Both the position numbers and the translations under genes were made by a program. A stretch of 64,000 nucleotides of DNA from Convolutriloba macropyga (taxonomy: Eukaryota): positions 1 through 64,000 of the forward strand of contig NW_027452738.1 of the NCBI RefSeq assembly GCF_964194025.1, read 5' to 3'. Positions 19,756 through 22,700 of the stretch are shown one piece after another. How positions within the stretch are numbered: position 1 is the stretch's first letter; the number at the start of each line of letters is the position of its first letter. Under the pieces are notes generated by a model. The model did no database searches. It worked only from the letters and a program-made list of their open reading frames with translations, and had not been told where the DNA came from.

Positions 19756-22700
19756 TTCCAGTCGGACCAACTGTATCCAGACGGGCTGATCAACTATGCG
19801 GTCAGAGACATCAGGGTGGTGGACCGGTACTTTATGCCGAGCGTGCCGATCACTCTGGTTGAGTCATGCGCGTTGACTATGGCCGGGCTGCGAGCGGCCT
19901 TGGAGGAGGGTGTGCATGTGAAGAAGTATGTCTATCAGGATACGTGGCATCTGGCGCGAGATTACATCCCACAGATGCTGGACGTGCTACATCAGCATTA
20001 CCCCATTCAGCTCCCAAAGAGTGCCATCTCACGGGCATTGGAGGAACTCCCCATGGACCTGCACAAAACCACTCCCAGACATTGGGAAACGGTGGGTCAG
20101 GTGGACTTGTTCATCGCGGGCGGAGAGTGCCCACCGTTCAGCCAGGCGTCGGGAAGGGCCCGAGGGTATGAGGACCCGCGAGCGCATGAGACGCCGGCTT
20201 TGGTTGAGAACATATGTTATCTGTACGATGTTCAGAGAAACATGGGGGGGATTGGTTACATTATGGAGAATGTGCCAACAGCCGTGTTCGACCCAGTCAA
20301 CCGTGCCATGCTGGGATCCCCAGTGGTGATGAACGGGGTGCCACTAGGATCAGTATCCAACAGGCGCACCGCCATCTGGCAGAATTTGTTAAGGCGACAG
20401 AGCCTATATCACAGATTCCAGAGCCGACCAGATAAGCCAGTAATCACCCTTCGGAAATTCCTGAAGGACTTCCCAGGGTGGTCTCCGCAGGAGGCGGTGG
20501 CTGATGTGACAGTCAAGTACAACGCCGACGGAGTCCACCGTATCCTGCCTAAAGCTATGGCTAGGCAGGACACCCACACCATGCGAGATTACCAGGGCAG
20601 GCCGGGGGCAGGAAAGCTGATCTTCAATGGCCAGCCTGAGCGCCCGACAGCTGAGATCAAGATCAGATCAGTGGGAGGAGACCCAAGGCACTTCTCCCAC
20701 ATTCCCGAGGAAATCCAACACACCATCATCGGGAAGTCCATCGACGTCAACATCCTGAGACACGTAATCAGGTGGGGGCAAGAGGAAGCTCATCAGGACC
20801 CGTTCCCGGGGCAAGGCGGTGAGCAGCAAGCCTGGTTGATGGACCCAGTGGCGGACGAGGCCAACGGGGGTAACAAGTTGGCCCCCACGGTAGTCTGCGC
20901 GCTGATGTATCTGGCGGCCTGGGCCCGGTCTGGGGGCATGTTAGGCGAGGCAGTGGCCAGGACGATCCTGTCCAGCGTTGCAGCCGCCACGGAGGCACCT
21001 TCAGACACACCGGCCTCATACGAGGTGGAGCCCAGCAACCCCAGAGCCGTGGACTGCGCCCAGGAAGGCGACTATGTGGAAGTCCCCTCAGAGAAGATGG
21101 AAGGGGTGTCATACCGCATGGGTACCACCCTTACCACTGAAGACCAGCAGATGGCCAAAGGGGCCATGGACTCCATGGGAGAACTGTGGAGTATGTCCAA
21201 GACAGATTTGGGCAGAGTCAAGAACTATGAGGCTACTGTGGATATTAAGGGTAGCCCTATCAGGCGGAAAGGCTACCGACTGAGTCACGGCGAGCAGGAA
21301 TTCCTGGACGACTGGTGCCAGCAGATGTTGAAGGCAGGGGTGATCGAGCCATCCAACGCAGAGTGGGCAGCAGCTACTCTACTGCCGCCTAAGAAGGACG
21401 ATGACGGTCAGTGGACAGGCCGCAGGGTGGTCCACGATTACCGCCCGCACAATCTGCAGACCGACCAGCTGGCATATGTGGTTCCAACCACACAGGAGAT
21501 ACTGCAGGAGACCGCCGGTCATCAGTGGTATACAGTCTGCGACATCAGGGGGGCGTACAACACGCTACCCATCCGGATGGACCATAGGGACAAGACCTCT
21601 TTCTGGGGGGTGTCGAATCTCTACAGATATACCTGCATGCCCATGGGGCTGAAGAATGCGGGTATCTCCTGGCAAAGGTGTATCGACTCCATTCTGCAAA
21701 ACGTGCAACGAGACGCGCTAGAGGAGTTGAACAAGGTCAGGCGTTCCGAACAGGAGGAGCCCCTTTCAGAGTTGTCTTACAAGTCAGGAGTCAAGGCATA
21801 TGCAGATGATATAGTCATCTACAGCGACGGGTCTTTCGCCGAACATCTGCTGATGGTCCTGGTGGTCTTCGGCCGACTGAGGAAGGAGGGCATCAAGCTG
21901 GTGCCCGGAAAGATGAGACTAGCCGTGGACCGCGTGGCTTTTCTCGGGCACTATATCTCCAAGGACGGCATTGCCCCCCAGATGGACAAGGTCCAGGCGA
22001 TCAAGGATCTTGCGGCGCCGGTAGGAGTACCAGCGCTGAGGTCGTTCCTGGGGATGGCTCAGTACTACGCCCACTTCATTCCGAAATTCGAGGACATGAA
22101 GAGACCACTAACCCAGTTGGTCAGGAAGAACGTCAAGTGGAAGTGGGGCGAGGCTGAGCAGACAGCATTCGAGGAGATTAAGACAGCGTTGACTACCGCA
22201 CCTGTCCTAGCCACTCCGGACTGGGACAGGACATTTTATGTTCACACCGACTGGTCCAAGAACGGCAGCGGTTATGTTCTCTGTCAGAAAGACGATGAGG
22301 GCAGGGAACGAGTCATCGCCTACGGTTCGTCAGTCAACAACGACGCCGAGGCAAATTACTCGTCATACGAGGGCGAGTTGACCGCGGTCCGCAAGGCGTT
22401 GAAGGCCTTCAGATACTGGATCGACCGCCGGCATTTTGTGGTAGTTACCGACCATCTTCCGCTGTATTGGCTGCTGACCACACCCAATTTGCGGGGGAAG
22501 TTTGCCAGGATGGCTGTGGAACTCTCAGAGTATGAGTTCACCATTCAGCACCGAGAGGGGGCAAAGCACCAGAACGCGGATGCGCTCAGCCGACTCAAGA
22601 CAGTCCCTGATATGGGGGCAACGCTGCTATCTCACCGCATGGTGGAGGCACCGACATGGGTGCTGCAGCAGGCAGCATCGCAGGTTCTGGTGACTTGCTT

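Follow-up and report, generated by a model that had tools for sequence, protein, structure and literature searches.

From a few algae, retrotransposons are known that encode the very enzyme by which they are normally silenced. The closest described counterpart of the locus reported here is KnitGypsy-Dnmt3 of Klebsormidium nitens, which combines Gypsy domains, a Dnmt3 domain in Pol and DIRS-like repeats (de Mendoza et al. 2018, PMC5890265). According to the accessible part of that paper, the Dnmt3 domains of the SymbioDIRS-Dnmt3 elements methylate CG in yeast, while the KnitGypsy-Dnmt3 domain showed no activity there, a result that its authors called inconclusive. In the accessible parts of other work, DNMT3 is mentioned for streptophyte and dinoflagellate elements of the Copia and DIRS types (PMC12344493), and Gypsy-DNMT3 is listed as streptophyte in a preprint on the EpiLTRs of Cymbomonas and Euglena (bioRxiv 10.64898/2026.05.21.726589).

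The element analyzed here lies in a 64,000-nucleotide stretch of contig NW_027452738.1 (hereafter the window) from the Convolutriloba macropyga assembly. Like KnitGypsy-Dnmt3, it carries a Dnmt3-related domain in a Gypsy Pol ORF, has an A-coding-B-A-B layout and shows purifying selection, and the first-pass annotation had rightly stated that the kind was reported in Klebsormidium. Unlike KnitGypsy-Dnmt3 as far as its description was accessible, it has a likely chlorophyte host, three 2A-like motifs and a DNMT lineage common to Copia, LINE and DIRS-like elements; and whereas the key residues of KnitGypsy-Dnmt3 are reported to be conserved, the second arginine of motif VIII and the glycine of motif I are missing here. 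SymbioDIRS-Dnmt3 likewise has a DNMT3-type C5 methyltransferase in Pol, active on CG, but SymbioDIRS-Dnmt3 and SymbioLINE-Dnmt are described as tyrosine-recombinase and LINE elements of dinoflagellates, and SymbioLINE-Dnmt holds an orphan lineage in ORF1, in contrast to the DNMT3-type domain in the RT ORF of the LINEs found in our assembly (PMC5890265, accessible part). The EpiLTRs, as described in the accessible preprint text, are also green-algal LTR elements with a DNMT, and methyltransferase domains were swapped between retrotransposon classes; however, their DNMT is a sister of DNMT4 and is accompanied by DAM and a chromodomain, whereas the window element combines a DNMT3-like domain with a PHD finger (bioRxiv 10.64898/2026.05.21.726589). 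The kind is known from KnitGypsy-Dnmt3, and what is new is the host group and an active-site variant common to several retrotransposon classes. The literature searched, with most subscription journals and Repbase lying outside it, yielded nothing on DNMT3 retrotransposons of chlorophytes, on the Lys variant, on one such domain lineage spread over Gypsy (two positions), Copia, LINE and DIRS-like elements of a single assembly, or on the junction mechanism described below.

The host element is a Ty3/Gypsy retrotransposon of 13.7 kb (12091-25835) with TG...CA ends and the layout A(1,399)-coding-B(83)-GC-A-B; its features lie on the forward strand, apart from the strandless palindrome. The left terminal repeat A, which starts with TG, spans 12091-13489, and 13488-13510, whose sequence is complementary to positions 307-329 of that repeat, likely serves for self-priming, presumably of the Tf1 type. 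Gag, with two zinc knuckles recognized by eye, and an aspartic protease (weak, Pfam E 0.13) occupy 13611-16400. A 2A-like (ribosome skipping) motif at 16401-16424 is followed by a protein of about 980 residues (16425-19359) without any Pfam or Atlas match, and then by two further 2A-like motifs (19360-19383 and 19510-19533). All three 2A-like motifs were picked by eye without a chance control, and the skipping is putative. The protein of about 980 residues between the 2A-like motifs is under purifying selection and has a hydrophobic stretch near its end. Downstream come the DNMT3-like C5-cytosine methyltransferase domain (19849-20790), identified by motifs, family profile and fold, the reverse transcriptase (RT) core (21436-21954; PF00078, E 6e-19), RNase H (22144-22533; PF17919, PF17917), the zinc-binding and core parts of a DDE integrase (22876-23376; PF17921, PF00665) and a PHD finger (23998-24126; PF00628 at E 3e-4, under the curated cut-off). 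A purine-rich tract at 24255-24268, the likely plus-strand primer, directly precedes repeat B1 (83 bp, 24269-24351, ending in CA), which meets the right repeat A (24354-25752) in the palindromic B-A junction GACA-GC-TGTC (24348-24357). Repeat B2 (25753-25835), also ending in CA, forms the right element end.

The Ty3/Gypsy order of protease, RT, RNase H and DDE integrase is present, albeit with a weak protease, while two complete direct LTRs with a purine tract beside the right one are absent, since the tract precedes B. The three long ORFs of the element gave no tyrosine recombinase match and hold a DDE integrase instead, and membership in DIRS, Ngaro or PAT was rejected on these grounds. The EpiLTRs were likewise rejected as a home for the element, given its DNMT3-like DNMT and the lack of a DAM or chromodomain match.

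In the window copy, the frame from 19756 to 24468 encodes 1,571 residues, among them RT, RNase H and DDE integrase domains and a weakly matching PHD finger. It begins at 19756 because a premature stop at 19753-19755 interrupts this copy alone among the five full copies; in the native form, seen in a sister copy, a single ORF of 3,636 codons has the DNMT domain internal to gag-pol. The domain had been described as fused N-terminally to RT in the same ORF; its position upstream of RT stands, though natively it is internal to the ORF. The last 2A-like motif, about 105 codons before the domain, would set the N-terminus of a DNMT-RT-RNase H-integrase-PHD product, so that the original wording may still hold for the predicted protein.

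Besides the window copy, the assembly contains four full copies and one partial copy. The left and right A repeats differ at 40 of 1,399 positions in the window copy, as opposed to 1-3 in the four other full copies; a 4-bp target-site duplication flanks four of the five full copies and is absent from the window copy, which alone also has a one-base frameshift near 16689. The window copy is likely a recombinant and non-functional, whereas the target duplications and the few A-repeat differences indicate that the four sister copies are young. TA precedes and TAC follows the 4-bp duplication in all four of them (G000:C3642:69149, C3927:33328, C44:12283, C4339:20603).

By profile and fold, the window domain is a genuine DNMT3-like C5-cytosine methyltransferase domain, with predicted activity. 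The five DNMT motifs noticed earlier upstream of RT are in frame, in order and at their proposed place. Coordinates read by eye put motif I at 19849-19890, the motif II Asp at 19939, the catalytic Cys, said to be retained and indeed kept, at 20128, the kept motif VI Glu and first motif VIII Arg at 20266 and 20362, the motif X Gly at 20731 and the domain end near 20790. The ordered motifs I-X and the fold of C5-cytosine DNA methyltransferases are thus present, but two residues expected of these enzymes are replaced, the motif I Gly by Leu (19873) and the second motif VIII Arg by Thr (20368); an invariant Lys stands in the recognition domain (20551). The PF00145 search proposed by the first-pass annotation remains below threshold for the window domain alone (E 0.15 and 0.13; 12.2 bits against a curated cut-off of 22) and is positive for the family, 13 of whose 15 aligned members match at E up to 1 (best 1.6e-12), with LINE, Copia and Gypsy relatives above the cut-off. 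Single-sequence searches with the window domain returned one unrelated PDB match (phmmer) and, in a word index, only the element itself.

A search of its own assembly with the domain gave 27 matches at 29-100% identity, 15 of which were aligned into a family profile after exclusion of near-duplicates, fragments and broken copies. Among solved structures only, this profile matched DNMT3A at E 1e-15 versus about 1e-8 for DNMT2 and M.HhaI, and a second comparison, of the same scope, gave 1.5e-24 for DNMT3; across the two, DNMT2 and HhaI ranged from 1e-8 to 1e-9. The ESM Atlas returned PF00145 clusters at 0.96. An AlphaFold model (pLDDT 83.5) found DNMT3A/B first in Foldseek, at E about 1e-11, and aligned with DNMT3A/B over 271 residues at Z 25.2 and rmsd 3.1, compared with Z 22.3 for M.HhaI. 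The suggested kinship with C5 methyltransferases is therefore borne out by profile and structural matches alike, DNMT3A/B ranking first in both. The domain shares with mammalian DNMT3A and 3B the fold, the motif order, the Cys, Glu and first Arg and the type of motif X, but it is only about 16% identical to them, has no PWWP or ADD Pfam match and differs at the motif I Gly and second Arg.

Profile matches at E 1e-30 or better fell into 308 clusters at 50% identity, and the earlier description of DNMT retrotransposons as rare is too strong. Among the best 150 of the 308 clusters, 50 consist of the domain alone and 4 have it before a Gypsy RT; in most of the non-solo clusters the carrier is a Gypsy element whose DNMT domain follows RNase H or precedes integrase, and the remainder are Copia, LINE or DIRS-like, where DIRS-like stands for RT likeness plus a recombinase match at E 0.013 only. 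Twelve picked proteins were confirmed by Pfam. The named organisms among 30 proteins looked up were Closterium (2), Scenedesmus, Enallax, Tetradesmus, Hariotina and Tetraselmis striata (2), and none of the 30 was a named Klebsormidium sequence. These relatives make the Gypsy-DNMT3 family a large one in green algae.

Within the one assembly, the DNMT lineage occurs in Gypsy (at two positions), Copia, LINE and DIRS-like elements. A quick RT-RNase H tree placed the three Gypsy families of the assembly within one 13-row group with support of 97, while the Lys-type Gypsy domains formed one group in 0% of 200 bootstrap trees of the DNMT domain. In this unrooted, retroelement-only DNMT tree, the window domain, itself on a long branch, groups with those of the LINEs (95/91), and that of the RH-INT Gypsy family falls near the Copia domains (86/89). 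An AU test of Copia, LINE and DIRS domains versus all others was borderline (p 0.044), and the group had been named after the first tree. Judging from these trees, domain exchange between retrotransposon classes is likely. That one lineage is present in elements whose replication cycles differ greatly speaks for a benefit of a general kind, not one bound to a single step.

The LINE carriers include giant elements (L009-L016: G000:C1707, C4007 and others; P0005) with ORFs of 3,815 and 5,061 codons, in which a single ORF encodes an endonuclease, RT, PHD, a PCIF1-type adenine methyltransferase, the DNMT3-like domain and RNase H; no counterpart of this dual-methyltransferase LINE was found in the literature searched. 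In the Copia carriers (L008, L017, L022: G000:C3925, C6, C2817; P0016, P0020), the DNMT3-like domain lies between the gag zinc knuckle and the protease, and Copia elements with such a domain also occur in T. striata. One DNMT-Gypsy is inserted into a member of a different DNMT-Gypsy family, within its terminal unique region (G000:C1302:475-11575).

As to the source of the lineage, a viral origin was rejected as far as phages are concerned: tblastn of the relative P0064 against phages gave 25 records, the best at E 2e-6 over 44% of the query. The nearest Atlas clusters are mostly phage enzymes, which in itself does not indicate transfer. PF00145 searched over the assembly for a host DNMT3 donor gave 18 matches, 14 of them at retroelement places already seen. 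The others are a C15 gene, which is DNMT2, and three C1 exons that look DNMT2-like by eye; as these genes are on AT-rich chromosomes, the DNMT repertoire of the algal host lay outside this search.

For active-site comparison, the near-full domains from the best 150 of the 308 clusters served as 137 representatives, 13 shorter ones being dropped. The catalytic Cys, the Glu, the first Arg and the motif II acid are each present in 137 of 137, the second motif VIII Arg in 119, the motif I Gly in 130 (with 7 gaps) and a Glu preceding the catalytic Cys in 67. The deviations noted earlier in motifs I and VIII are real, the motif I Leu occurring in none of the 137 and the second Arg loss being clade-wide. 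The GK for GN in motif X, also listed as a deviation, is normal for DNMT3, and Asn follows the Gly in just 27 of the 137 relatives.

Loss of the second Arg pairs with a Thr-to-Lys change in the recognition domain: a 152-row set, which includes 15 own-assembly rows, comprises 119 Arg/Thr rows, 32 non-Arg/Lys rows and 1 exception. All 15 own-assembly rows are of the Lys type, which has persisted in Gypsy and Copia as well as in LINE and DIRS-like elements. In Closterium, the relatives whose domain separates the protease from RT are of the Arg/Thr type. In a 40-row tree of hand-picked rows, unrooted and retroelement-only, the split between the two types has support of 99/97, and this single supported branch points to one evolutionary event, not repeated covariation. 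We take the conserved Thr to be the equivalent of M.HhaI Thr250, near the flipped base. The Lys may stand in for the missing second Arg, and the clade is a natural experiment on whether C5 methyltransferases remain functional once that residue is lost. Replacement of the second Arg by Ala is reported to leave about 12% activity in Dnmt3a and the M.HhaI R165A mutation to lower activity 1e5-fold (PMC4802922, accessible part). The window subfamily stands on a long branch of the DNMT tree (2.15). Motif I is also degenerate in its sister family (L024, L026) and is regular in the Lys-type LINE and RH-INT Gypsy domains; the motif I Leu of the window subfamily could block SAM.

The DNMT domain has a pN/pS of 0.11 (65.5 synonymous and 23.5 non-synonymous changes), compared with 0.02 for RT, 0.05 for RNase H, 0.03 for integrase and 0.36 for the neighboring linker. 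The corresponding values are 0.13 and 0.17 for the gag/protease region (gag 0.13) and 0.21 and 0.36 for 16425-19359. The domain is therefore under purifying selection, weaker than that on RT, RNase H and integrase. None of the 23 residue differences found in it among five copies affects a key residue. Third-position transitions are enriched at CG (98/546, versus 143/1,790 at other C; odds ratio 2.5, p 3e-10), with no CHG excess (CHG 34/518, CHH 109/1,272). This CG hypermutability fits CG methylation of the copies without identifying the enzyme. The footprint can stem from host enzymes, as the CG content ratio is 0.76 in the coding region and equally low in the window flanks (0.71 and 0.76), whereas repeat A is not depleted (1.17).

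The three Gypsy families of the assembly have in common split ends and the junction GACAGCTGTC between B1 and A2, and no DNA similarity beyond GACA-GC-TGTC was noticed among them. The shared split ends and junction suggest integration from a cut circle. cDNA with B+A ends would join into a circle, and integrase would cut this circle at one GACA-GC-TGTC junction to yield CA-3' ends, independently of the methyltransferase. A plain 2-LTR-circle model fits the window family, in which the left and right A are homogenized and the A-to-B2 joint is variable (1, 1, 1, 2 or 4 T in five copies). It fails for the RH-INT family, whose layout is A(164)-coding-B(40)-GC-A-unique 495 bp-B (G000:C3484:14886-15618 and relatives) and in which no convincing self-priming site was found. 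About 495 bp of unique sequence separate its A from B2; the plain circle leaves their copying unexplained, and this family needs a variant path. None of 27 non-PPT B ends pointed to an insertion cut at the inner junction (0/5, 0/15 and 0/7, from searches that give lower bounds).

Foamy virus and HIV-1 integrases are reported to cut palindromic LTR junctions (PMC1180852, PMC1905944, accessible parts). In both cases a DDE integrase can open a palindromic LTR junction inside the DNA and thereby yield processed ends, as proposed here, but the viral junction is made from cDNA tips, whereas the second junction copy here is a fixed internal part of the element. Closer parallels come from Chlamydomonas, in whose repeat library the palindrome occurs at least 11 times. 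In the accessible part of its description, the short Gypsy-18_cRei has the full layout found here, A-internal-purine tract-B-GACAGCTGTC-A-B, and the internal parts of Gypsy-4, -7a and -8a end in CA-GC before the TG of the LTR (PMC9940879). Gypsy-7a_cRei, with this CA-GC-TG core, has a left LTR without its last 8 bp, for which the accessible text gives no mechanism, and its published domain list has no DNMT (PMC9940879). A divergent DNMT could be overlooked in Gypsy-7a_cRei, just as Pfam nearly missed the window domain. In our set, three Copia carriers have the domain with ordinary LTRs and the LINE carriers have no long repeats. Since the domain occurs without the junction (Copia, LINE) and the junction without a listed DNMT (Gypsy-7a_cRei), the two are separable. 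The junction palindrome provides a concrete, testable integration model for split-repeat Gypsy elements, and laboratory Chlamydomonas already has an active related element.

With respect to function, we consider it on balance probable that the domain is a retuned DNMT3-like enzyme that methylates new cDNA, its activity being predicted. A 2A skip would release DNMT, RT, RNase H, integrase and PHD as one product, the methyltransferase would travel with the reverse transcriptase, and cytosines of the new cDNA, probably in CG, would be methylated, so that the copy would enter the genome marked like host DNA; in the window subfamily, the activity may be weak or retuned. In favor are the top rank of DNMT3A/B, the kept Cys, Glu and first Arg, the purifying selection, the pairing of Arg loss with Lys gain, the CG transition excess and the CG activity of SymbioDIRS-Dnmt3 domains in yeast (PMC5890265, accessible part). 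The lost second Arg and motif I Gly, the long branch, a constraint weaker than that on RT, the yeast result for KnitGypsy-Dnmt3, the possible host origin of the CG footprint and the single evolutionary event behind the Arg/Lys pairing speak against it. These same losses and the long branch, together with a Leu for the motif I Gly that no representative among the 137 has, the degenerate motif I of the sister family and the inactivity of KnitGypsy-Dnmt3 in yeast (PMC5890265, accessible part), would suit a domain that has lost all or nearly all catalysis in the window subfamily and persists in the integration complex to bind cDNA or trap cytosines. An altered DNA-binding module, which the first-pass annotation had also proposed, is thus a live rival in view of the motif I and VIII changes. 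We regard it as rather unlikely: five copies agree in retaining the Cys, the Glu and the first Arg together with the acids of motifs II and III, and motif I is regular in the Lys-type LINE and RH-INT Gypsy domains.

The clade-wide and kept Arg/Lys change could also mean that the Arg-to-Thr and Thr-to-Lys replacements gave the clade a different substrate, for example element RNA, an RNA:DNA hybrid or non-CG cytosines. LINEs make no free cDNA, and the LINE carriers hold the domain beside a PCIF1-type adenine methyltransferase domain, both of which would fit such a shift; the fold and profile, however, are nearest to DNMT3, not DNMT2, and the transition excess is found at CG only, which makes this quite unlikely. 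The first-pass annotation had suggested protection of one att junction as a purpose of the domain; the junction exists, but junction and domain each occur alone. In this reading, the enzyme would methylate one of two identical GACA-GC-TGTC circle junctions, and integrase would cut only the other. In its favor, the junction is present in all three DNMT-bearing Gypsy families examined, the domain lies upstream in 15 of 15 further Gypsy RT matches as well, and none of the 27 non-PPT B ends is followed by the junction. Against this stand the Copia and LINE carriers without the junction, the Chlamydomonas Gypsy elements with the junction or its CA-GC-TG core, Gypsy-7a_cRei among them (source accessible in part), and a palindrome core without CG, while inner-cut products may be unfit or have been missed; we give this reading very little credence. 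A broader scenario, in which a Tetraselmis-lineage DNMT3, its site rewired by a recognition-domain Lys in place of the otherwise near-universal second Arg, was traded among four retrotransposon orders and in these Gypsy elements gates the junction choice of circle integration, strikes us as very unlikely. Methylation of new cDNA, one of the roles suggested in the first-pass annotation, remains our preferred reading.

The contig most likely comes from a Tetraselmis-like green algal symbiont within the animal assembly. An exportin-T exon in the window is 100% identical to P0324, which is filed under an acoel worm, but beyond that match the exon most resembles an MMETSP protein (90%), followed by Tetraselmis sp. 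(76%) and Chlamydomonas (50%). GC content is 28-37% in the large chromosomes sampled (7 stretches) versus 49-58% in element-bearing small contigs (17 stretches), and Lys-type DNMT relatives occur in Copia proteins of T. striata. Together, the exportin-T relatives, the GC contrast and the T. striata proteins point to this origin. A block of 47-54% GC with a Copia-DNMT (G000:C6:8186001-8216000) lies, without an N gap, in a 76-Mb chromosome of about 30% GC; it is algal DNA that was either mis-scaffolded or transferred.

Elsewhere in the window, 42078-44791 and 46819-51922 hold intron-rich host genes, the exportin-T gene and a WD40 gene that resembles ELP2 by eye. MULE/SWIM transposase-like ORFs, also assigned by eye, lie on the reverse strand at 55188-59883 and are split by a 71-bp tandem array (57554-58741), and a RING/IBR-like ORF (by eye) is found on the forward strand at 62090-62761. 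Repeats of several types, comprising inverted-repeat elements, a dispersed 500-bp repeat, nested foldback arms and an 81-84-bp tandem array, are located at 26060-28974, 27788-28295 / 54342-54842, 38597-40380 and 29266-30308.
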